64,000 nt of DNA, taken from the sequence record NC_100327.1. One strand, 5' to 3'. The translations under genes were made by a program, and so were the position numbers. The notes beneath the pieces were generated by a model. It had not been told where the DNA came from, ran no database searches, and saw only the letters and a list, made by a program, of their open reading frames with translations. Shown here one piece after another: positions 1 through 63,757 of this stretch. The first letter of the stretch is position 1; every line of letters begins with the position of its first letter. Source of the DNA: a phage.

Positions 1-117
1 CAGTGTCCATGTTGTAGTACCTTTCTCAATAGCACATGTGAAACCCTTCTTCTCAAGTTCTGCACGGCGGTCGCGTGCTTCTTTACGAGTTTTGAAATGT
101 TCGTAGATGAAAATCAT
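1..117 (-). CDS. hypothetical protein, 3'-truncated by window edge (MIFIYEHFKTRKEARDRRAELEKKGF...)
   Basis: ATG at 117-115 with AAGGAG Shine-Dalgarno upstream; frame stays open to position 1. Confidence 0.45.
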   Translation of the reverse strand, partial: MIFIYEHFKTRKEARDRRAELEKKGFTCAIEKGTTTWTL

Positions 118-127
118 AGCTGTCTCC

Positions 128-2110
128 TTATTTGGTGTTATTCTTTGCGTCGATCAGTTCACGGTATTCAATCATAGCAGGAGTGTCCCAATATTTCAAG
201 CCCACATGCTTCAAAAGTGGATATTTCTTTTCCAATCTTGCAATATAGGCCTTCCCGCACTTGACTCGGTTGGCGATTAAGATTTTGGCACGATGATTTA
301 GCTCACTGTGCTTCCACGCGGTGTTACCTTCCCACTTGTGGAAATGTGGCCGATAATTTCCAAAATCTTGCATGGGGATAATTTTCCCTAATTGTCTATA
401 CAGGCTGTCATATGAAGTTTCATTTGCTGCGCGAGTCAGTAAGAATTTCCAGGCGTCCTCTTTCAACAAATGTTCCACATTTTTCTCTGTAACATACTGG
501 CAATCAGGATCAGTCCAAAGCAGACGAGATTCTGATACCAGGTACAGATCTTCCCCTTCAGGAATCTGGAGTGCCGCACGCACACGGTCATAATTTTGCT
601 GGTAGATGTTACTTAGCTGTCCCAGCCAACAACTTCCACGTTGGATATCACCCTCATAAGGAATGCAGTGCTTAATCTTCTTGAACTCTGCCTTAGTAAT
701 ACGCTCACGACGGAAGTAACCATCTTTCTCAAGTTTTTTAACCCAATACCCTGGCTCATAGTGAGTTTTTGTTTCACCTTTCTTTACAGGACGGCGAGGG
801 AGCTCTGATAACAATTTGACCGTATCTGCAAAGAACGGGTGGTGTGCCGCTTCTTTAAACTCTTCCATCAGATCCGTGTTACGGCAATAGAAAACGTTGC
901 GTCCGGTGATCTCGCTTAAGTAGTTACACTTATTTCGGTTATATTTGCCGTCTCCGTCGTTAAATACAAGGTATACACCTCGTAAGAACTCCGACTTTCC
1001 GTAACGAGCATAGCCTATGCGGCCTTTATTTAAGCCGCCAGCGAAAATTTCACAATCGCCTAAGTCGCCAAGCCCTGTTTCTTCCCAACGGTTCCACATA
1101 AAGTTTTTGCCGAAGATGTGTCCGAACACTCCACTGTTCTTCATCATCTCACGTGCTTCTGAGGATGTTTTTGCTGTCTCCAATTCCGCAACAACTTCTG
1201 CCCCACGAAGACGTATACCTTCTTTGACAAAGGCCTCCAGGCGATCCTGGAATCCACCATCGTCGTGCCCCTCTATGGTCCATTCGCGCCCAGGGTTAAT
1301 ATTGCAATCCCCGATAGGGATCTCTACACAGATTGCAGGGTAGTCTGTCAATGTTTCCAGAAACTTAGAGCGGTAAGGTTGGTGTCCCATCACCACACGG
1401 CTCTCATCAGAGCTGGTATAACCTTTCAGGATAGTCATTTTCCAACCATCTTTCTCGTAGCGATACTGCGCCTCAACCTTGTCACCTTCCAGCATCTTAC
1501 TGGTCATAGGGTCGGTAACGGTAAACGGAAACTTTGCATAGCGTAGGCATGACGCAATAGCAGTGCGATATTTCAGAACATGCTCTTTCTTAACATGGAA
1601 CTGAACTTTTACCCCGTTGTGCTCTTCAGTCTTTCGCTCGCGGATCTTGGTAACGTTTGGGATACCCTGATCCAAGAACAATAGATATGTGCTTTCAACA
1701 CCATTGTGCACACTGATAACATCGAAAGTGTCCACCATACTGAACGGAGCCTTTGAACCAACACCTTTATTACCTACCAGAGCGTTGCTGTTGCGCTTGG
1801 TTGACTCCCCGAGATTCATGAAAGTGTTGCGGACCATCTCTTCTGACATGCCCAATCCAACGTCCTGCACAAAGAAGTATGGTTCAAGGTCTGTAGGAGA
1901 GTGAATGATGATCGGTACATCACCCCGTCCAGACTCAACATGGGAGTCCACAGCATTGAAGATTGGTTCACGGCAGCTTGCCAGCACCTTATCTTCGTAA
2001 ATCCCTTTAATGATTAGCCCAAAAGTCTCTTTGTTCAGAGAAATTGAGCCCCTGGTGACCTCCATATTTCCGGTTAGTACTGCTTTAGTTTCATTACTGT
2101 TTACAATCAT
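128..2110 (-). CDS. GHKL-superfamily ATPase (Hsp90/MutL/MORC-like ATP-binding fold) with large uncharacterised C-terminal region
   Basis: 660-aa ORF; N-box EPIFNAVDSH, G1 box DVGLGMS, G2 box GNKGVGSKA within first ~130 aa; stop overlaps RBS of downstream gene. Confidence 0.6.
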   Translation of the reverse strand: MIVNSNETKAVLTGNMEVTRGSISLNKETFGLIIKGIYEDKVLASCREPIFNAVDSHVESGRGDVPIIIHSPTDLEPYFFVQDVGLGMSEEMVRNTFMNLGESTKRNSNALVGNKGVGSKAPFSMVDTFDVISVHNGVESTYLLFLDQGIPNVTKIRERKTEEHNGVKVQFHVKKEHVLKYRTAIASCLRYAKFPFTVTDPMTSKMLEGDKVEAQYRYEKDGWKMTILKGYTSSDESRVVMGHQPYRSKFLETLTDYPAICVEIPIGDCNINPGREWTIEGHDDGGFQDRLEAFVKEGIRLRGAEVVAELETAKTSSEAREMMKNSGVFGHIFGKNFMWNRWEETGLGDLGDCEIFAGGLNKGRIGYARYGKSEFLRGVYLVFNDGDGKYNRNKCNYLSEITGRNVFYCRNTDLMEEFKEAAHHPFFADTVKLLSELPRRPVKKGETKTHYEPGYWVKKLEKDGYFRRERITKAEFKKIKHCIPYEGDIQRGSCWLGQLSNIYQQNYDRVRAALQIPEGEDLYLVSESRLLWTDPDCQYVTEKNVEHLLKEDAWKFLLTRAANETSYDSLYRQLGKIIPMQDFGNYRPHFHKWEGNTAWKHSELNHRAKILIANRVKCGKAYIARLEKKYPLLKHVGLKYWDTPAMIEYRELIDAKNNTK

Positions 2111-2607
2111 TTATTGCGCTCCTTGTAGTAGATATGACTCCCGAATTGAGCTGTCCTCTGCATCTTTTTTGCCCATTTCGGTCGTACTTTGGTTGTATGG
2201 TAGTGTGTTGCTCCACCTGTTATGTCCATAGCCATGTATGCAACATGGTTGTTATTATAGACCTTTAGAAGCATCTTTGCAAGACTTTTAGCGTGATCCC
2301 ATGAATCTTTTTCTGTCACCTTAAAAGTTTTGCCGTGGTTTGTCCACGAAAACTGGTTAGGTTGGTAGACAATCTTTCTTATAGTGTCTGGGTATTTGGG
2401 GTGAGATTTCCTGTTTAGTGTGGCAAACCCTGATGCCAGCATACCCATCGTGCCATCCCCTCTAGCCTCCCTGTAGATATTGCATGCCAGAATGTTTTCC
2501 TTAGTATCTGAGGGCTTGCAAGTATGATATACTTTTTGTTTTGGTGCTGCAACAACAGGCAGCGATAAAAGTGCGCTCAAAATAATAGCAAAGATCTTAA
2601 TTTTCAC
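2107..2607 (-). CDS. secreted cell-wall hydrolase, SleB/Hydrolase_2-like (candidate endolysin)
   Basis: 166 aa; N-terminal hydrophobic signal or SAR-like segment MKIKIFAIILSALLSLPVVAA; NIYREARGDG motif typical of SleB-type hydrolases; GTG start preceded by GGAG. Confidence 0.5.
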   Translation of the reverse strand: MKIKIFAIILSALLSLPVVAAPKQKVYHTCKPSDTKENILACNIYREARGDGTMGMLASGFATLNRKSHPKYPDTIRKIVYQPNQFSWTNHGKTFKVTEKDSWDHAKSLAKMLLKVYNNNHVAYMAMDITGGATHYHTTKVRPKWAKKMQRTAQFGSHIYYKERNK

Positions 2608-2616
2608 AATGACTCC

Positions 2617-2644
2617 AAATAGAAAATCCCCGCCGAAGCGGGGG
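2617..2644 (-). terminator. rho-independent terminator (CCCCGC-CGAA-GCGGGG hairpin plus U-run on minus-strand RNA)
   Basis: GC hairpin 2627-2644 followed on minus strand by T-run (plus A-run 2622-2626); sits immediately before RBS of hydrolase gene. Confidence 0.6.
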
Positions 2645-2656
2645 AGGTCTTAGAAA

Positions 2657-3037
2657 TTAATCGTAGTGTGCCAAAATCTCTCCATCGTTGCAAGTTCCCT
2701 CTACAAAGTTATGAAGATTCATGCACTCATCTTGATAGAAGAATTTACCGCTTTTCAGCCGTAGGCCAAACAACTCCGCATCTCCACGATGGCAAGCCTC
2801 TACAAGTTCATAGATTTCATACGGCAACTCTCCGTCGTCATGGAAGAATCCAGCCTTATCGTTGACATAAATGAAGAAATAATCACTGCTATCGCAAGCG
2901 TCCAATATTTTAAACCAGATTTCATCTACATCTTTTTCTCGGATATCGATCACGCAAGTGGAGCTGCATTCGTACTCCTTCTCCGGCTCCTCGGTCAATA
3001 CCACCAGGTAGTTTCCCCGCTTACCTACTTTAGCCAT
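2657..3037 (-). CDS. hypothetical protein
   Basis: ORF 2657-3085 trimmed to ATG at 3037 (MAKVGKRG...) which has AAGGGGGG RBS and avoids overlap with upstream gene. Confidence 0.5.
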   Translation of the reverse strand: MAKVGKRGNYLVVLTEEPEKEYECSSTCVIDIREKDVDEIWFKILDACDSSDYFFIYVNDKAGFFHDDGELPYEIYELVEACHRGDAELFGLRLKSGKFFYQDECMNLHNFVEGTCNDGEILAHYD

Positions 3038-3047
3038 ACAACCCCCC

Positions 3048-4232
3048 TTAAGCTTTAGCCAAAATGGCGCTAAACTCTTCACCAAACTCTTTTACAATCT
3101 TCATCAGGTTTGGGTATGCTTTGATCAGCTGAGCAACAATCTTGTCACGCCCTTTACCGATAAGCAAGGCATTTCCTAAGGCATTAGGTTTCATCATCGC
3201 CATAAAGACTGAGAATACAAAATCTCGGTTCTCGTCCTTGAAGTTTTCCCAAAGGAAATCGAGGAAGTTTGCCACACAGCTGACAAGATCTTCGTCTGAG
3301 ATACTTGCATTTTCCATCATATTACGAATAGCGATACAACCTTCAGATCCAAGAATCCACAAAATGTCTGGCTGCTTAGGACCTACGTATTCTTTGCAGC
3401 CACCTGCCATAATCCGACCGATTTCCGGTAAATTGCGTTTCTTGGTGTGGTATGTCCAGATCTCTACCGCTGCAGTGTGACCAATAGCACCTTGCAGAAG
3501 AACACGGGCCATAGCGTCAGAAATAATACCGCTGTCAAAATCGTGCAAGATGTCAGATGCAGCAACCCAAGATCGTGGTGTGGCAAAAGATGGACAATTA
3601 ATCTCAGCCATAGCCTCATAATTATCAATAGCTGATGGAACTCTTTTCAGATACCCAATTACAGAGGAGTGAACCCCGTTGAGGAATGCGTAGTCCTCAA
3701 TAAACACCTCTGCATTGCTTGTAACCTCTACAATGATAAAACGGTTAGCCAGAGGGGCTTCGAGCGCCGAAAGAACCGCACCATCTGTAGAACGGTTACC
3801 CGCAGCCACAAAAACAGAACCCTTAGGGAATGCATAGGTGCCGCACTTGTGGTCAAGCATAATTTGCATTGCAACCTTTTGCAGGTAGTTATCTGCATGA
3901 GTGAGCTCATCCAGAAAGATAATTCCGCTCCAGTCAGGATCCGCAGGCCAAAATTCTGGAATTGCAAACACTGTACGTGTAGTTCCATCCGCTTCTACAG
4001 GGATAGGTAGCCCAGATAAGTCGGCAGGATCTTTATCTGACAGTCGCACGTCAACAAGGTTGTCATCTCGCTCACCGAACATATTATCAGCGATCTGCTT
4101 CATCACCTGGCTTTTACCCACACCCATTGGTCCCAAAATTAGGACAGATCGGCTATGACGTTGGGCAAACTGAATAATAGCTGGCAACTCACGGACAGTG
4201 ATTTGACCACTTTCGAATACGTTTCTTGACAT
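3048..4232 (-). CDS. MoxR/CobS-like AAA+ ATPase (AAA_5 family)
   Basis: 394 aa; Walker A GPMGVGKS, Walker B IIFLDELTHA, arginine-finger region AAGNRS; size and motifs typical of MoxR-type ATPases. Confidence 0.7.
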   Translation of the reverse strand: MSRNVFESGQITVRELPAIIQFAQRHSRSVLILGPMGVGKSQVMKQIADNMFGERDDNLVDVRLSDKDPADLSGLPIPVEADGTTRTVFAIPEFWPADPDWSGIIFLDELTHADNYLQKVAMQIMLDHKCGTYAFPKGSVFVAAGNRSTDGAVLSALEAPLANRFIIVEVTSNAEVFIEDYAFLNGVHSSVIGYLKRVPSAIDNYEAMAEINCPSFATPRSWVAASDILHDFDSGIISDAMARVLLQGAIGHTAAVEIWTYHTKKRNLPEIGRIMAGGCKEYVGPKQPDILWILGSEGCIAIRNMMENASISDEDLVSCVANFLDFLWENFKDENRDFVFSVFMAMMKPNALGNALLIGKGRDKIVAQLIKAYPNLMKIVKEFGEEFSAILAKA

Positions 4233-4501
4233 TAGTAAAAGTCCTCTACTTGTGTGTAAGTGTTTTCAAAGTTTTCCAAAACAGATATCACATCGAATCT
4301 GTCAATATCATACGTGACTCTCCAGTTGTACGCAACCCTTTCTGCTGTTGCCTCTTCTGGCGCTAGTCGTCTGCTGGCATAAAAGAGTGTTGGAGTACAC
4401 TTTCTTGCTTGCCCTCTAACTTTCCCATAATAATATCTGTGAATATCTTTGTCAAAATTTAACTCTTTTTCTGCACGAAGTTCATATTGCTGGTATAACA
4501 T
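4232..4501 (-). CDS. hypothetical protein
   Basis: 89-aa ORF in leftward early operon, stop overlaps start of ATPase gene. Confidence 0.45.
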   Translation of the reverse strand: MLYQQYELRAEKELNFDKDIHRYYYGKVRGQARKCTPTLFYASRRLAPEEATAERVAYNWRVTYDIDRFDVISVLENFENTYTQVEDFY

Positions 4502-9359: not shown

Positions 9360-9623
9360 ATGGCAACAGAGTTAAAATTTGCATCAAACCGTAAAACTAA
9401 GAAGTATCTGTCCTCAGTAGCTCCAGGCACTGTGGTGATGTTTGTTGATGAACTTGGGGATGTGAATACAGCACTTGTTGTAAAATCACATCCTGCAAAC
9501 ATATATGTTGGGGTATTTGACCTGTTCAGAAAGGTGTTTGTAGAACTGCCTCACAGTTTGGTTGTTACAGAAATGGATGCCTGCATAGAAATTCTTGGCG
9601 AAGTTATGGTGGAGGAACAATAA
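9360..9623 (+). CDS. small protein, member 1 of four-gene tandem paralog family
   Basis: 87 aa; GAGGAGG RBS; shares MAT...K.KKK...GTVV...VK...F.L...ILGE pattern with next ORF. Confidence 0.6.
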   Translation: MATELKFASNRKTKKYLSSVAPGTVVMFVDELGDVNTALVVKSHPANIYVGVFDLFRKVFVELPHSLVVTEMDACIEILGEVMVEEQ

Positions 9624-9886
9624 TGGCTACCAGCATTGTATTCAATTCTAAGGTGAAGAACAAAAAGCGTGCAGACAGTTTTCCGTGTGGGACCGTGGTA
9701 AGTTGCGACGGAGACGGCATTCAAAACATAGTTATGATTGTCAAAACAGGAGAACATTGTGTGTGGGGGTTCGATTTAGAAAATAATGAGTTGTACGATC
9801 TGCCGCCAAACATGAAAGTTACAGAGCTTGACACCAAAATTACCATCCTTGGAGAGACAAGCTATTCAAAAGAAGGAGGAGAATAA
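9623..9886 (+). CDS. small protein, member 2 of tandem paralog family
   Basis: 87 aa; start overlaps previous stop; conserved CGTVV and ITILGE positions. Confidence 0.6.
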   Translation: MATSIVFNSKVKNKKRADSFPCGTVVSCDGDGIQNIVMIVKTGEHCVWGFDLENNELYDLPPNMKVTELDTKITILGETSYSKEGGE

Positions 9887-10149
9887 TGACCACAAAAATC
9901 ACTATCGCAGAACCGAAAGCTAACACTCAGCCTATCGAAAAGTTTAAGTGCGGTGAGGTGGTAACATTCACACCAGATAATGAAGATGCTAAGATTTTCG
10001 CAATGGTCACAGCTGAGTGGATGTGTGACAACACCACACAGGTTCTGCGTTTTGACACCTATCTTACCGATGAAATCAGGAACGACAAGATTGTGACTGG
10101 TGTGGATACTGAGATTGTTTTCTACAAGAGCTTTTTAGAGGGTTTCTGA
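9886..10149 (+). CDS. small protein, member 3 of tandem paralog family
   Basis: 87 aa; KCGEVVTF and downstream hydrophobic pattern aligned with members 1-2. Confidence 0.55.
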   Translation: MTTKITIAEPKANTQPIEKFKCGEVVTFTPDNEDAKIFAMVTAEWMCDNTTQVLRFDTYLTDEIRNDKIVTGVDTEIVFYKSFLEGF

Positions 10150-13888: not shown

Positions 13889-16800
13889 TTAACGAGAAAA
13901 GGTTGCGTAGGCTTCTAGACGATACTGCTGGTCACCAGGGAACATAACACCTATAGAGGCTGTCCCTAGAATCCTGCCTTCCTTTCCAGACTCCATTCTG
14001 AACCCTACCCATCCTGAACTCCTTGCAGCCTCGATGTTGTCGCTATACCCGAAAGTGGCAAGATCGTCAACACCAGCCCCAAACAGCAACTGAAGCTGAC
14101 TTCTCGGAAGCCCTATAATTTCAGGAATATACGCACCAAAGTACACCATCTGCCCTACCTTAGGACCGCTGCCGTACTCCATCGGTTTGCTTGTAGAGAA
14201 AGTCTTCATACCAGAAGTACCTGCCGGATTAGGGTATGCCCCATTTGTTGCTGTACCTATCCACATTCTCCACTGTGGTGCCATCTGTTTGACAGTAAAA
14301 GATGTTGAAGACGTTTTGCGCCCTGCATCATCAGTAACTACAAACTTTATGGTGACATTCCCAGTAGCTTTAAATGTTACCAGCCCTGTGGCAGCATCCA
14401 CTGTTGCAATGTTGGTATTACTACTTTCCCAAGTCTTTCTAATACCGGATACGTTGGAAGGGGTAATAGAAGGTTCCTGCATCTGCAGTTTACCACCCAC
14501 AATCCCTATGCCGTTACCTGGATTATACAGCACACCAACCTCGTCTACAATGTTCCCTGCTTTGAGACTATACTTCCTTGAGAAGTTGTAGGTTCCGTTA
14601 TAAGTGTGTGTCCCTGAGAAGGTGACATCTGCCTTCCCGTAAGAGATGCAAACCAAAGCATACTTCCTGTCAGGCAACGTTTCTCCAGTCTCTGGGTGAG
14701 TTTTACCCACCTGGAACACGCTCGGGTCAGTAGAGTCGTGACTATCGCTAATGGAGCTTGGACCTCCCATCAACTGTGACAAACAATTCCTTACCCATGT
14801 CCAGTTATTATCACTGGAGAAGTCCACAGTCAAATCAAACACAACCCACTCATTCGGCTTCCACACAGGTGTTGCAATGGACTTGCCTACACCACCTCCT
14901 TGGAGTGTTGCCGACTGTTCGGTGATCAGGGCCGCATAGGCCAGAGTCCCTAAACTCAGAGTCTGGCTTGCTGTCCTCACTACCTTAGAATCAGCATCTG
15001 TGAAGTTGTTGATGATTTGGAATGTGCCATAAGTGTTTTTACAGGTAATTCTGGCGTTCAGCGTGTCAATCTTCCTCACATCTGCCATAGCAGTGTTAGA
15101 CACAGAGAAGTCAGAAGCTTTAGCTGAGTTTGCCGCAACAGCAGGATCAACGTTAAGAGTTGCGTTGAACTGACAGGCAGGGGTAACCAGCAGCTTGTTA
15201 TCACCTATTTGCTTCCATGAAATACTTTGGACAGGTAGATTCCATTTAATACCTGAGAAAACTTTAGCAACCCTTGGCCCCAAAGCTCCAGTCCTGTTGT
15301 CTTTACAGCACATAGACATGGTGATCGTTGACGGAGTTGCCTGACCGAACAATTCCTGTGCTTTTGCAGAGGACATAGTGTAGAAATTGTCCTTAACAAA
15401 CTCATCAGCGGCTAAAGATCCGTCAGCCCTCCACCACTGCACCTGGTACCCGGTCTTATCCCAGCCACCGACCTGCTTCAGGTCTTCCCAGGAGATTTCC
15501 AGATCCCCAGTGGTAGGGTTGATTGCAGCAGCCCCTGGTGTTCCAGAGGACCATAATGGGATATCGAACCACGCTGGTTTAGCAGACTGCACTGCGCTGG
15601 GACCTATTGCGGCAGCAAGTTGCTGGCCCATCAATACGCGAGCATCTTTCACCAGACCCCACTCGATCATAGACCCAGAGTAACCTTCTTTCTTGTAGGC
15701 TGAGGATCCGTTCAAATGGATGAGTCGGCTTGTGCCAAAGTTATGTGCTCCACCACCGTTGTCGTCTGCAAAATTGGTTATGATTCTATCCCTGATATTT
15801 TTCCATGCCCTGCCCCCAATCTCATAGTCATGGTCATAACATCTTTGCAGTGTTGTCCAGCAAATGATCGCCATCCTTCTACCATCGCTGAATCCAAAGG
15901 CCTGATCGTTAAGCTCTCTCCACAAGTAGCAGTTAGTGGTCCACATGGCCCTATGAATGTTAAACCAGTTTATAGATTTGGCTGAGTTGTCCCACTGAGT
16001 CCCAGGTAATTCAGGCCATACTGCATTAACCAGCATGTCTTCTGTTCCTGCATCAACCAAGAACCCTCTTACCTTCTTACCCATGCCTACCCTATCTTTT
16101 GCAATCCAACTGCCAAACAATCTCAGTTTTGGACCATAGACAACATCTTCCGGATGCTCAAAAGAAATATATTTTAGGTATATTGTAGGGTCACCATAGG
16201 TGCCATCACAAACAGCTTTGTGCATGTTCTCGCCAAGGTCTAGACGAAGTCCTGTTACAACTTTAGATGTGTCGGTGAATTTGTCTGTTAAATCAAACTC
16301 ATACCACCACCAACCTGCACCCAACAATACTTTCTTACAACGCTGTGCATCTGTATCAGATATTCTCTTATCACCTGCAAAAGGCGAGTCAGCAAACTGA
16401 TAGTGCAGAGCAATCTCAAAAGGATGTGTGGATGTCCCGTTTTCTGCAAGAACTTGTTTACCTATTAAGTCGCACTTAATGATCATCACAACACGTTTGT
16501 ACCCGTTTGTTACCGGAATTTGCATAGACATGGATGTCCCGTCCATGTTTGATCTCAGTGCAGTCATGATGATATAAGGGTCAACGGCATTGCCCAGAGT
16601 CTCAGGACCGGGGATTATCTTATACTTCTTGACCTGCCCCATGATGTAGTCACTTGCGTAAGTTGCCGCATTCAAGCAAGATCCCCCACCAGGTAACTCA
16701 CCAGGTCCCCAGAAAAATGCGCCGTAACAGTTGTAGAACCACTTGTTAGGATCGTATTTATTCTTGAAGGTCTGAACCTCGTTGGCCTGTTTTGTCAAGA

Positions 16801-19525
16801 AAACCTGCGTGTCTGTGAAGATTGCAGGGTTTACTCTCGCCTGTCTTGGAGGGTAACCTGTAGTTTGGTTAAACCACAAATTACAAGAGTAATCCCTCAT
16901 ATAGTCATAATCAGAGTATTTGTTTACATCTTCGTTCCAACACATGTTTAGGTTGGTACCGCCCATGCATACAATATATTCTGCGACATACTTATCACTT
17001 CTGGTAGGAATACCTATGAACCATCTGTTAACAGGCTCATCCCAAGCTGTGCGCTCATCTTTAACGCAGATAGCAATCCAGTCATGTGTTCCTGTTTTCT
17101 TGCACACATCTCGCTTCATACCATAGTAGAACTCTTTAGTATCCGGCTCAGGTGCATTTATCAGGTAACTCCATGCCTGATTTGCATAAGTTCCATTGGT
17201 GCGTGGATCATGATCAAAGGCATACATGATGATCCTTTCCCCACCAAGATGTTCGCCAAGAGTAACTTTGACATTCACATCGCCGTAACCGTTGCGAACA
17301 ACATCCATATTATCAATAGAGATACCTCTGGGCGTGTAGGCAATTTTCAGCGAGTTATCTTCACTAGTGCCGCCAAGTGTAATCCCTATGTTGTTTGTTG
17401 TCCCGTCGACATATCTTACTGTAGCTTCCCAGCGTATTCCGAAATATCCTGCATCATGGCTGACAATTTTCAGTGTACGAGCCCCAGAGCTAGGTTTTCC
17501 AGGATCAGGCCAAGGATCTGGATGTTCATGGACAGTCAACGATGTTCCGTTTTGCTCGTTGACCTGCAACATTTTACCGCCTCTGCCGTTAGGGTTGAAC
17601 TCCCACAAGGCTTGTGTTTTCACAACATTGTCATACGTGGTACGTCTCTGATCGTAGATCTCTTGAGTCACATCGTAGGTTACAGACCCGGCATCCATTC
17701 TATGGAGTCGTACCATATACGATGTATCGCCTTCTACAACAGGTTGAGCTGCGTTAAGCCCGAAGTATACAGTATCGTTGACATGGAACTGTTTGTTTCT
17801 ACCGACAGTATGCCACTTGCCGTTGGACGGATACGCAGGAACTATGGTGTTCCAGTTCAAAGTTCTTGTCGTATGGGTTCTGCCTGTGCCATGCTTGTCA
17901 TGATAGGTTATTTTTACAGAGTACAGGCCACGTCTGTTAACATTTCTGTTATACTGGGTAACAACAACTTCGTTGGCCCCACCGTGGTTCCAGTTGGTGG
18001 AGAATTGGTAATTTGCATCTGTAACAACCGTACCTGCAGCATTTACCAACTCAATCTTGTCAATAATGAACGTAGCCCCCTCTGGCTGAGGCTTCAATTT
18101 CATCTTGACCGTGTCACCAATGTAGATATTGCTAACACTACTAACACCATTAACGTCGAAAATATCATCAACGCCCCAACTGTCTACTGGGACATTTTTA
18201 TACCAATTCTCAGGAACCTCTGTGAACCCCTGACTATTAAGTCTGCCGCCAAACAGGTTATTAGAGCCTGCAAAACTTCCCCTTGGGATGCCTGACCACC
18301 AAAGTTTGCCATTAACAACAGTAAAGGTCCCTAAGAAACCTTCTCTGTGGATACCCTGGAAATAAACACTTTCTGTCCAGCTTACTGGCATCCGTTGCTC
18401 GACGTATTTAGCCGTAGCCAGAGCCTGATAGTGAATAAAATTAGCCCTAGGACTGTTGTTTGCAGATTGTGCACCAATATCATTGCACAGATTGCGAGAG
18501 AAGCCACGATACTGTTTGGTGCCATTATTGAAGAAAATGCCACTTGTGCCGTATCCACGAGCCATTATCACCTCATGGGTGTAGGTGATATTTAAGGAAC
18601 GCCATGTGTCATCTCCCCAGACGTCTTGCCCGTAGAATACGTTAACAAGCTGTTGGTCATCAGGTTTGTGCATCCTTTCTGTGGCTATAATTGCACCATT
18701 AGGTCCACACATGAACCCTTTCCATGTCTCGCCCACCGGGATGCCTTTAAACTGGTCAAGAGTCACATGCTCGGCTGGATAAACTAGTGTGTTTTTGCTG
18801 TTATTTCTTAAGAAATCGTAACCTGCAATCCAGAATCCGTTAGGACCACCAAAAATAACCGAGTTGTCATGAACTTCACAATTAATTCTTGGATTTTTCC
18901 AAGGACCTGTCTCTGGACTTTCAGATGTTTCACCGATCTTAACTGGAGTAGCGTGTTGACTTTTGTCAACATGAAGAGAGCCGTAAGTATTATTGCCAGA
19001 GCCGTACAGGTGAAGCATACCATCAGCCTCTGGTGCAGCAATTACCCACACTGTATTGTTTACGCCACCCATTACTTCAACAAGTCTCTCAGGATGGGTG
19101 TCCAAATGCAACCCTGTTACGATCTGTTCCGGCAAAGGTGTCCACTCTCTGACACAAACATCGTTTCCACCTGCTGCCTCCGATCCGATAAGACCAGCTG
19201 TGCAACCAATATAGAAAAATTTATTATCGAATGTGCGGATTACAAATGCACGGTCAGCTCTCCAAACATGGTCTACGTTCCAAGCTGCCTCATTAGGATA
19301 GTTTATTGTATCAAGATCTCCAGTCCGACACTCTCCGAACCTATTATAGCCAGTAATATTAAGCTGACCATCATCAAAAAGTATAGCTAAGCTATTTACA
19401 TAGGATACTGTGTTGCTTGTACCATCACTGTTGTCTATTGGGTATGACAGAACAGCAAGTTCCTTAATTCCACCCCTCTTATCGAGGAAATGACGACCAA
19501 GTTTTAGCAAAGGGATTGGAAGCAT
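13889..19525 (-). CDS. giant virion-associated protein (1878 aa) with C-terminal bacterial Ig-like domain; putative adhesin or tail fibre
   Basis: Single uninterrupted ORF; Big_2-like segment IATVDAATGLVTFKATGNVTIKFVVTDDAG near C-terminus; lies at distal end of tail-fibre block. Confidence 0.6.
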   Translation of the reverse strand: MLPIPLLKLGRHFLDKRGGIKELAVLSYPIDNSDGTSNTVSYVNSLAILFDDGQLNITGYNRFGECRTGDLDTINYPNEAAWNVDHVWRADRAFVIRTFDNKFFYIGCTAGLIGSEAAGGNDVCVREWTPLPEQIVTGLHLDTHPERLVEVMGGVNNTVWVIAAPEADGMLHLYGSGNNTYGSLHVDKSQHATPVKIGETSESPETGPWKNPRINCEVHDNSVIFGGPNGFWIAGYDFLRNNSKNTLVYPAEHVTLDQFKGIPVGETWKGFMCGPNGAIIATERMHKPDDQQLVNVFYGQDVWGDDTWRSLNITYTHEVIMARGYGTSGIFFNNGTKQYRGFSRNLCNDIGAQSANNSPRANFIHYQALATAKYVEQRMPVSWTESVYFQGIHREGFLGTFTVVNGKLWWSGIPRGSFAGSNNLFGGRLNSQGFTEVPENWYKNVPVDSWGVDDIFDVNGVSSVSNIYIGDTVKMKLKPQPEGATFIIDKIELVNAAGTVVTDANYQFSTNWNHGGANEVVVTQYNRNVNRRGLYSVKITYHDKHGTGRTHTTRTLNWNTIVPAYPSNGKWHTVGRNKQFHVNDTVYFGLNAAQPVVEGDTSYMVRLHRMDAGSVTYDVTQEIYDQRRTTYDNVVKTQALWEFNPNGRGGKMLQVNEQNGTSLTVHEHPDPWPDPGKPSSGARTLKIVSHDAGYFGIRWEATVRYVDGTTNNIGITLGGTSEDNSLKIAYTPRGISIDNMDVVRNGYGDVNVKVTLGEHLGGERIIMYAFDHDPRTNGTYANQAWSYLINAPEPDTKEFYYGMKRDVCKKTGTHDWIAICVKDERTAWDEPVNRWFIGIPTRSDKYVAEYIVCMGGTNLNMCWNEDVNKYSDYDYMRDYSCNLWFNQTTGYPPRQARVNPAIFTDTQVFLTKQANEVQTFKNKYDPNKWFYNCYGAFFWGPGELPGGGSCLNAATYASDYIMGQVKKYKIIPGPETLGNAVDPYIIMTALRSNMDGTSMSMQIPVTNGYKRVVMIIKCDLIGKQVLAENGTSTHPFEIALHYQFADSPFAGDKRISDTDAQRCKKVLLGAGWWWYEFDLTDKFTDTSKVVTGLRLDLGENMHKAVCDGTYGDPTIYLKYISFEHPEDVVYGPKLRLFGSWIAKDRVGMGKKVRGFLVDAGTEDMLVNAVWPELPGTQWDNSAKSINWFNIHRAMWTTNCYLWRELNDQAFGFSDGRRMAIICWTTLQRCYDHDYEIGGRAWKNIRDRIITNFADDNGGGAHNFGTSRLIHLNGSSAYKKEGYSGSMIEWGLVKDARVLMGQQLAAAIGPSAVQSAKPAWFDIPLWSSGTPGAAAINPTTGDLEISWEDLKQVGGWDKTGYQVQWWRADGSLAADEFVKDNFYTMSSAKAQELFGQATPSTITMSMCCKDNRTGALGPRVAKVFSGIKWNLPVQSISWKQIGDNKLLVTPACQFNATLNVDPAVAANSAKASDFSVSNTAMADVRKIDTLNARITCKNTYGTFQIINNFTDADSKVVRTASQTLSLGTLAYAALITEQSATLQGGGVGKSIATPVWKPNEWVVFDLTVDFSSDNNWTWVRNCLSQLMGGPSSISDSHDSTDPSVFQVGKTHPETGETLPDRKYALVCISYGKADVTFSGTHTYNGTYNFSRKYSLKAGNIVDEVGVLYNPGNGIGIVGGKLQMQEPSITPSNVSGIRKTWESSNTNIATVDAATGLVTFKATGNVTIKFVVTDDAGRKTSSTSFTVKQMAPQWRMWIGTATNGAYPNPAGTSGMKTFSTSKPMEYGSGPKVGQMVYFGAYIPEIIGLPRSQLQLLFGAGVDDLATFGYSDNIEAARSSGWVGFRMESGKEGRILGTASIGVMFPGDQQYRLEAYATFSR

Positions 19526-62944: not shown

Positions 62945-63021
62945 TGGTCTCCACGGAGTGATTCGAACACTCGACCTCCTGATCCCAAATCAGGCGCTCT
63001 ACCAAGCTGAGCTACGCGGAG
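62945..63021 (-). tRNA. tRNA-Pro (anticodon UGG), CCA encoded
   Basis: Manual fold: 7-bp acceptor CUCCGCG/CGUGGAG, D-arm GCUC...GAGC, anticodon loop UUUGGGA, T-arm GUCGAGUGUUCGAAUCACUC. Confidence 0.7.
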
Positions 63022-63032
63022 TATTTATTATT

Positions 63033-63107
63033 TGGTGGCCCTGGGTGGAATTGAACCACCGTCTGGCGATTATGAGTCGCTTGCTTGAACCTTCCAGCTA
63101 CAGGGCC
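63033..63107 (-). tRNA. tRNA-Met (anticodon CAU; initiator, elongator or lysidine-Ile not distinguishable), CCA encoded
   Basis: Acceptor GGCCCUG/CAGGGCC, anticodon loop CUCAUAA, T-arm GGUGGUUCAAUUCCACC. Confidence 0.6.
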
Positions 63108-63108
63108 A

Positions 63109-63184
63109 TGGTGCTGATGGCAGGACTTGAACCCGCAACCTATTGATTACAAATCAATTGCACTACCGATTGTGCTACATCAGC
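63109..63184 (-). tRNA. tRNA-Thr (anticodon UGU), CCA encoded
   Basis: Acceptor GCUGAUG/CAUCAGC, anticodon arm AUUGA-UUUGUAA-UCAAU, T-arm GCGGGUUCAAGUCCUGC. Confidence 0.7.
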
Positions 63185-63191
63185 AAAAAGG

Positions 63192-63288
63192 TGCTAGGTG
63201 ATGGAATCGAACCACCTATGTATTCAACGACTACCTCGTCTATTTTCAGGATTAAAAATCCTCGCCCTTGCCAAAGGGCTTACCTAGC
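63192..63288 (-). tRNA. atypical tRNA-like element (97 nt; possible UUU anticodon, oversized variable region); may be a pseudo-tRNA
   Basis: Perfect 7-bp acceptor GCUAGGU/ACCUAGC, D-arm GCCC-UUUGGCAA-GGGC, canonical T-arm GGUGG-UUCGAUU-CCAUC; ~30 nt between anticodon-like hairpin and T-arm; CCA not fully encoded. Confidence 0.35.
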
Positions 63289-63386
63289 TCAGTATGTTGA
63301 CCATGTTGCTAGTCGGCGATGACGACTGTAACATTTGATAATCCGGTTCTGCTTCCGACTTTCGCTTAATTACAAGGTCAACAATG

Positions 63387-63477
63387 TGGCGGAGAGTAAT
63401 GGAATCGAACCATCATCGAGTCATCCTCAACGGGACGGTTTTCAAGACCGCTTGAGCACCATTGCTCCCTACCCTCC
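63387..63477 (-). tRNA. tRNA-Ser (anticodon UGA), long variable arm, CCA encoded
   Basis: Acceptor GGAGGGU/ACUCUCC, anticodon arm GCGGU-CUUGAAA-ACCGU, long variable arm, T-arm GAUGG-UUCGAUU-CCAUU. Confidence 0.65.
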
Positions 63478-63591
63478 TTTATAAATTATACTGATAATGA
63501 CACTGATTTTCGAGCAGTTAGTGACTAGTATAAACGACGATAAATATCAATGCCATTATCTGTATTATTTATGCATCTAAAAATATAAATT

Positions 63592-63678
63592 TGGTGGGGA
63601 GTGGTGGAGTCGAACCACCCGAGTCGCAATGACAATAGATTTACAGTCTACACCGCTACCTCTACGGGATAACTCCCC
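63592..63678 (-). tRNA. tRNA-Tyr (anticodon GUA), long variable arm, CCA encoded
   Basis: Acceptor GGGGAGU/ACUCCCC, anticodon arm GUAGA-CUGUAAA-UCUAU, T-arm GGUGG-UUCGACU-CCACC. Confidence 0.65.
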
Positions 63679-63682
63679 AATT

Positions 63683-63757
63683 TGGCACCCCGTACTGGAC
63701 TCGAACCAGTGTCAACGGCTTAGAAGGCCGCTGCTTTATCCACTAAGCTAACAGGGC
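63683..63757 (-). tRNA. tRNA-Arg (anticodon UCU), CCA encoded
   Basis: Acceptor GCCCUGU/ACGGGGU with G-U pairs, anticodon arm GCGGC-CUUCUAA-GCCGU, T-arm ACUGG-UUCGAGU-CCAGU. Confidence 0.65.

Follow-up and report, generated by a model that had tools for sequence, protein, structure and literature searches.

The rII locus of phage T4 is among the most famous in genetics, and the rIIAB locus has been called "long-known yet poorly understood" (PMC8594841). T4 can do without rIIA and rIIB except on hosts with lambda RexAB, where transposon insertions in both genes are depleted (bioRxiv 10.1101/2025.11.20.689424); on its own, RIIB activates gasdermin/CARD defence systems of bacteria (PMC10312443). 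Here, we analysed a 64,000-nucleotide stretch of phage DNA (NC_100327.1; hereafter, the window) and the gene at 128..2110 on its minus strand, which an earlier examination of the letters alone (the sequence-only reading) had taken for a GHKL ATPase with a large unrecognised C-terminal domain. Judged from sequence relationships, the product of this gene is almost certainly rIIA, and we consider it highly probable that the locus as a whole is best explained as a Vequintavirus rIIA with a GHL-type ATPase module that would have an accessory role together with RIIB. The observation stands up but was known before: rIIA is annotated in a public record of identical sequence, members of the family are very common, and earlier literature has described the GHKL domain of rIIA.

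Read directly from the sequence, the gene is a minus-strand open reading frame that runs from ATG to TAA over 660 codons plus stop; its identical counterpart in Escherichia phage nimi is nimi_130. Over its first 4.3 kb, the window was 100% identical to nimi (MN850626.1; Vequintavirus, an rV5-like myovirus) and 97–100% identical to more than 100 related records, and another Vequintavirus, Bas49 (EmilHeitz), was identical across the rIIA region. The label of nimi_130 in MN850626.1 is "RIIA protector from prophage-induced early lysis", and in the BASEL phages Bas49 and Bas57 the gene pair is labelled "membrane integrity protector rIIA" and "rIIB". The suggestion that the protein was unassigned and possibly novel was thus not borne out, since it is annotated as rIIA in the identical nimi record and PHROG 612 (RIIA) covers its whole length (residues 1–656 against profile positions 1–722 of 725; E = 2.2e-124, 418 bits). 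T4 rIIA, the founding member, matched the same profile with E = 9e-250. No test in our analysis spoke against the identity as rIIA. Direct comparison with T4 rIIA by BLASTP gave 28% identity over residues 1–198 (E = 3e-21), and alignment of the rV5-type family profile with hhalign extended the match to residues 1–317 against T4 residues 1–310 (probability 99.9%, E = 9e-37). A homologue of rIIA was found by tblastn in 2,642 phage records, and rIIA was the annotation in most of the homologue records sampled, which came from phages of Escherichia, Klebsiella, Vibrio, Pseudomonas, Streptomyces, cyanobacteria and others. Separately, 16 unannotated GenBank records named "Campylobacter phage" (host Campylobacter jejuni; e.g. 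C12, MG065635.1) were 97–99.7% identical to window positions 1–4300; the Campylobacter host labels of these Vequintavirus-like records look doubtful.

An ATPase module of the GHL type, built of two domains, occupies the first ~290 residues, and all of its ATP-binding and catalytic motif residues are conserved. The GHKL (Bergerat-fold) ATP-binding domain (residues ~27–190; 1541..2032, minus strand) carries motif I (REPIFNAVDSH, with E48, N52 and D55), motif II (DVGLGMS, with D83, G85 and G87) and motif III (GNKGVGSKA, with G113, G116 and G118). The three ATP-binding boxes were therefore present exactly as the sequence-only reading had quoted them; their nine named residues were invariant across 30 homologues, and Pfam HATPase_c_3 matched residues 50–147 above its cut-off (E = 1.8e-8, 34.9 bits; gathering cut-off 25). 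The second domain (residues ~191–285; 1256..1540, minus strand) is beta-rich and transducer-like with an invariant R275-E276 pair (NPGREW); residues ~190–290 are the transducer domain of GHL-type ATPases, and R275 is a candidate gamma-phosphate sensor. When the Protein Data Bank was searched with the single protein sequence, only noise was returned (E ≥ 0.07). With the family profile, only Hsp90-family and other GHKL N-domains matched, and among solved structures the Hsp90-family N-domains were the nearest relatives (E = 4e-9), their catalytic and lid motifs aligning in register. Placement in the Hsp90/MutL/MORC-like branch was right, with the Hsp90 family nearest by profile.

This relationship invites the explanation that rIIA works as a chaperone in the manner of Hsp90, folding or remodelling client proteins of the phage or the host during takeover. 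The kinship to Hsp90 speaks for it, but the C-terminal region had no significant match to Hsp90, and we regard this explanation as very unlikely. HtpG/Hsp90 was also rejected as an identity for the protein, because the NCBIfam HSP90 model scored 18 bits against a cut-off of 455 and the C-terminal region of rIIA did not match. Another reading of the same fold is that rIIA is a clamp of the GHL ATPase type (MORC-, MutL- or topoisomerase-like) directed at DNA or the nucleoid. It would tune phage replication or transcription together with RIIB, itself a transcription factor, and the Rex and lysis phenotypes would be secondary effects. Some relatives of the fold do act on DNA, and rIIB has been proposed to be a transcription factor; however, the best matches in both sequence and fold were Hsp90/TRAP1 and not DNA enzymes, searches revealed no Toprim, MutL C-terminal or other DNA-binding domain, and the public records annotate membrane-integrity protection. 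A DNA-directed clamp is thus a fairly improbable account of rIIA.

Downstream of the ATPase module, the C-terminal ~375 residues (~286–660; 131..1255, minus strand) comprise a helical linker, an alpha/beta domain, a beta domain and a C-terminal helical bundle. Their architecture is specific to rIIA, their sequence diverges rapidly, and no relative has a solved structure: residues 285–660 had no match among solved structures and none in Pfam. The sequence-only reading had held that the last ~500 residues match nothing, which stands for Pfam and, over residues 285–660, for solved structures, but not for residues ~190–290, which are the transducer domain, nor for PHROG 612, which runs end to end. 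C-terminal fragments alone still matched PHROG 612 colinearly (last 460 residues, E = 6e-35; 360 residues, 8e-20; 210 residues, 9e-11). Foldseek searches with the C-terminal region returned rIIA proteins from T4-like phages and from others, at E-values between 9e-9 and 1e-3, and the named significant matches were to rIIA and to no other family. At the extreme C-terminus there were weak colinear hints of similarity to rIIA of two other types; in a 9-sequence search E was ~1e-3, and a sub-segment hidden Markov model lowered it to 3e-4. The region had been described as unlike topoisomerase or MutL dimerisation domains, and indeed neither a Toprim nor a MutL C-terminal domain was found. A type II topoisomerase subunit (GyrB/ParE) was rejected as a candidate identity, with no Toprim in Pfam at E ≤ 1 and no topoisomerase match in residues 285–660, as was MutL, whose C-terminal dimerisation/endonuclease domain was not found. 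A match of the whole protein to HtpG or to a topoisomerase subunit, which would have spoken for a housekeeping family, was looked for; it was the RIIA family that matched instead.

The gene is expressed from a single leftward gene run that consists, in order, of a MoxR ATPase, a small open reading frame, a SleB-like hydrolase, rIIA and rIIB. After the rIIA stop codon (128–130; 118..130 with the 10-nucleotide spacer, minus strand, read directly), the next gene starts with an ATG at 117..115, and an AAGGAG Shine-Dalgarno ribosome-binding site overlaps the rIIA stop ahead of rIIB. The junction is close and compatible with coupling, although the codons do not overlap. At the other end of the gene, the TGA of the SleB-like hydrolase overlaps the rIIA ATG as ATGA. 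The proposed translational coupling of rIIA to its downstream neighbour is accordingly compatible with the short spacer and the Shine-Dalgarno sequence over the stop codon, but the tightest coupling is to the upstream gene.

Only the first 39 codons of the downstream gene (1..117, minus strand, by translation) lie in the window. That it runs off the edge had been noticed before, and in the identical nimi record it proved to be rIIB: nimi_129, "rIIB protector", is 401 amino acids long in the full record and lies 10 nucleotides past the rIIA stop on the same strand. The rIIB protein matched PHROG 609 (RIIB) with E = 2.2e-60; in Vequintavirus rIIB (401 amino acids; L001 2912-4117) the RIIB profile matched residues 132–375 only. 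The N-terminal ~130 residues of rIIB differ and look like two ~40-residue repeats, and a SPOR-domain match to residues 8–42 was below threshold (E = 0.003). rIIB also has a moderately hydrophobic stretch at approximately residues 95–113 (19-residue Kyte-Doolittle mean 1.77).

Modelled on the protection that T4 rIIA/rIIB give against lambda RexAB, the following mechanism can be proposed. rIIA would bind ATP and close into an N-terminally dimerised clamp, as Hsp90, GyrB, MutL and MORC do, with the variable C-terminal region supplying partner or target specificity. Together with RIIB, it would serve in the early phase of infection as an accessory factor that is not essential; faced with an abortive-infection system of the host or a prophage, the two proteins may prevent the membrane potential from collapsing, so that the infected cell stays productive. 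By analogy with T4, we give an anti-defence role of rIIA in this phage an even chance, and the ATP-driven dimer clamp, argued from related ATPases, could equally well prove right or wrong. The sequence-only reading had also raised the reverse possibility, that the phage had co-opted a MORC-like GHKL defence gene and put it to use in superinfection exclusion or defence. Beyond the shared GHKL fold, this idea found no backing in the PADLOC defence-system models, whose best matches to rIIA were not significant (E = 0.005–0.02, 11–13 bits; the top one E = 0.005, 12.6 bits); moreover, the family occurs, largely under the rIIA name, in the 2,642 phage records mentioned above, and T4 rIIA genetics point to counter-defence, not defence. 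A co-opted defence gene is therefore extremely improbable, and with nothing significant in PADLOC, a known defence-system protein was rejected as an identity.

Several observations weigh against the overall reading of the gene as a Vequintavirus rIIA that acts with RIIB in this way. No transmembrane segment was predicted in rIIA (top 19-residue Kyte-Doolittle mean 0.83), so any membrane contact would be peripheral or made via RIIB. ATPase activity and dimerisation are predictions that we infer for this protein. The literature yielded no experiment on any Vequintavirus rIIA, and data on the rapid-lysis or RexAB-exclusion phenotype of mutants were found for T4 and Bas37 only. In BASEL phenotyping, RexAB hit just 2–3 phages (PMC8594841), a range so narrow that wild-type phages are uninformative on RexAB as the target here. 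In the C-terminal region, Foldseek TM-scores were low (0.2–0.45, against rIIA from phages other than T4), as would be expected of several flexibly linked domains, and a family hidden Markov model of residues 318–660 gave only E = 0.24 against T4 rIIA in a 9-sequence search. What supports equivalence to the T4 type in this region is similarity of local structure together with the PHROG profile, though rV5-type members may be among the sequences behind that profile. Since direct sequence comparison was negative and TM-scores were low, the C-terminal region of rV5-type rIIA is likely, but not proven, to be equivalent to that of T4.

What remains of interest concerns the mechanism of the rII family and is not specific to this window. 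The predicted model, in which GHKL and transducer domains closest to Hsp90 carry the invariant pair R275/E276 and are followed by a C-terminal region lacking solved relatives, offers testable mutants. One bolder extension, which we think rather unlikely, is that rV5-type rIIA has kept the GHKL and transducer "engine" while its divergent C-terminal ~375 residues are a specificity module against a host defence other than RexAB, and that the MoxR/SleB-like/rIIA/rIIB run of Vequintaviruses, whose MoxR ATPase is reported to overcome the predicted system DS-28 in Bas54, is an anti-defence cluster; if true, rIIA proteins generally would be modular ATPases with swappable anti-defence adaptors.

Upstream of rIIA lies a SleB-type cell wall hydrolase of 166 amino acids (2107..2607, minus strand; Pfam Hydrolase_2, E = 2e-19; PHROG 938, endolysin). 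Three genes upstream of rIIA is a MoxR-type AAA ATPase of 394 amino acids (3048–4232, minus strand; PHROG 1297, E = 2e-110). According to a HIDEN-SEQ preprint, Vequintavirus Bas54 requires its MoxR ATPase, bas54_0063, to overcome the predicted defence system DS-28 (bioRxiv 10.1101/2025.11.20.689424). The MoxR gene of the window is very probably the same gene, because its orthologues carry the locus tags _0063 in Bas49 and _0062 in Bas57.

Elsewhere in the window, a tRNA cluster (62945–63757) contained six ordinary tRNAs (Pro, Met, Thr, Ser, Tyr and Arg) and one odd tRNA-like gene of 99 nucleotides (63190–63288, minus strand; ARAGORN and Rfam). ARAGORN could make no assignment for the latter, reading it either with a 4-base anticodon, "atcc", or as Gln(ttg) with a 5-nucleotide "intron" and a long extra arm, and the Rfam tRNA model scored it at 35.5 bits, just over the gathering score of 29. 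A 5.6 kb gene, nimi_155 (13889–19525, minus strand; ~1,878 amino acids), is annotated as "hypothetical protein" and adjoins the large lateral tail-fibre gene block. Three abutting genes of 264 bp each, nimi_142 to nimi_144 (9360–10149, plus strand), resemble tandem paralogues; two of the three fall in the same VOG, and they lie downstream of two annotated anti-sigma factor genes.

Among known systems, the protein shares 9–15% identity with the GHL/MORC modules (the 43-kDa part of GyrB/ParE, the MutL N-terminal part, MORC2/3, SMCHD1 and Topo VI-B) and differs from them in lacking Toprim, MutL C-terminal, CW and coiled-coil elements. The Hsp90 family (HtpG, TRAP1 and GRP94) is among the closest known systems, but rIIA did not match the family model, with its N, M and C domains, over the whole protein. 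T4 rIIA itself is longer (725 amino acids cf. 660 here), and its 28% BLASTP identity is confined to the N-terminal ~200 residues, whereas no direct similarity in sequence could be detected over the C-terminal ~345 residues. Vequintavirus rIIB, at 401 amino acids, is longer than T4 rIIB and has another N-terminal part, and the neighbours differ as well, with rIIA.1 and topoisomerase gene 60 in T4 and the MoxR ATPase and SleB-like hydrolase here. The T4-like phages 44RR2.8t, KVP40 and RB43, in contrast, appear from predicted structures to share the C-terminal architecture at the fold level. With T4, the locus has in common the order of rIIA then rIIB on one strand, and the two rIIA proteins share PHROG 612 over their full length, homologous residues 1–317 and the same GHKL motifs.
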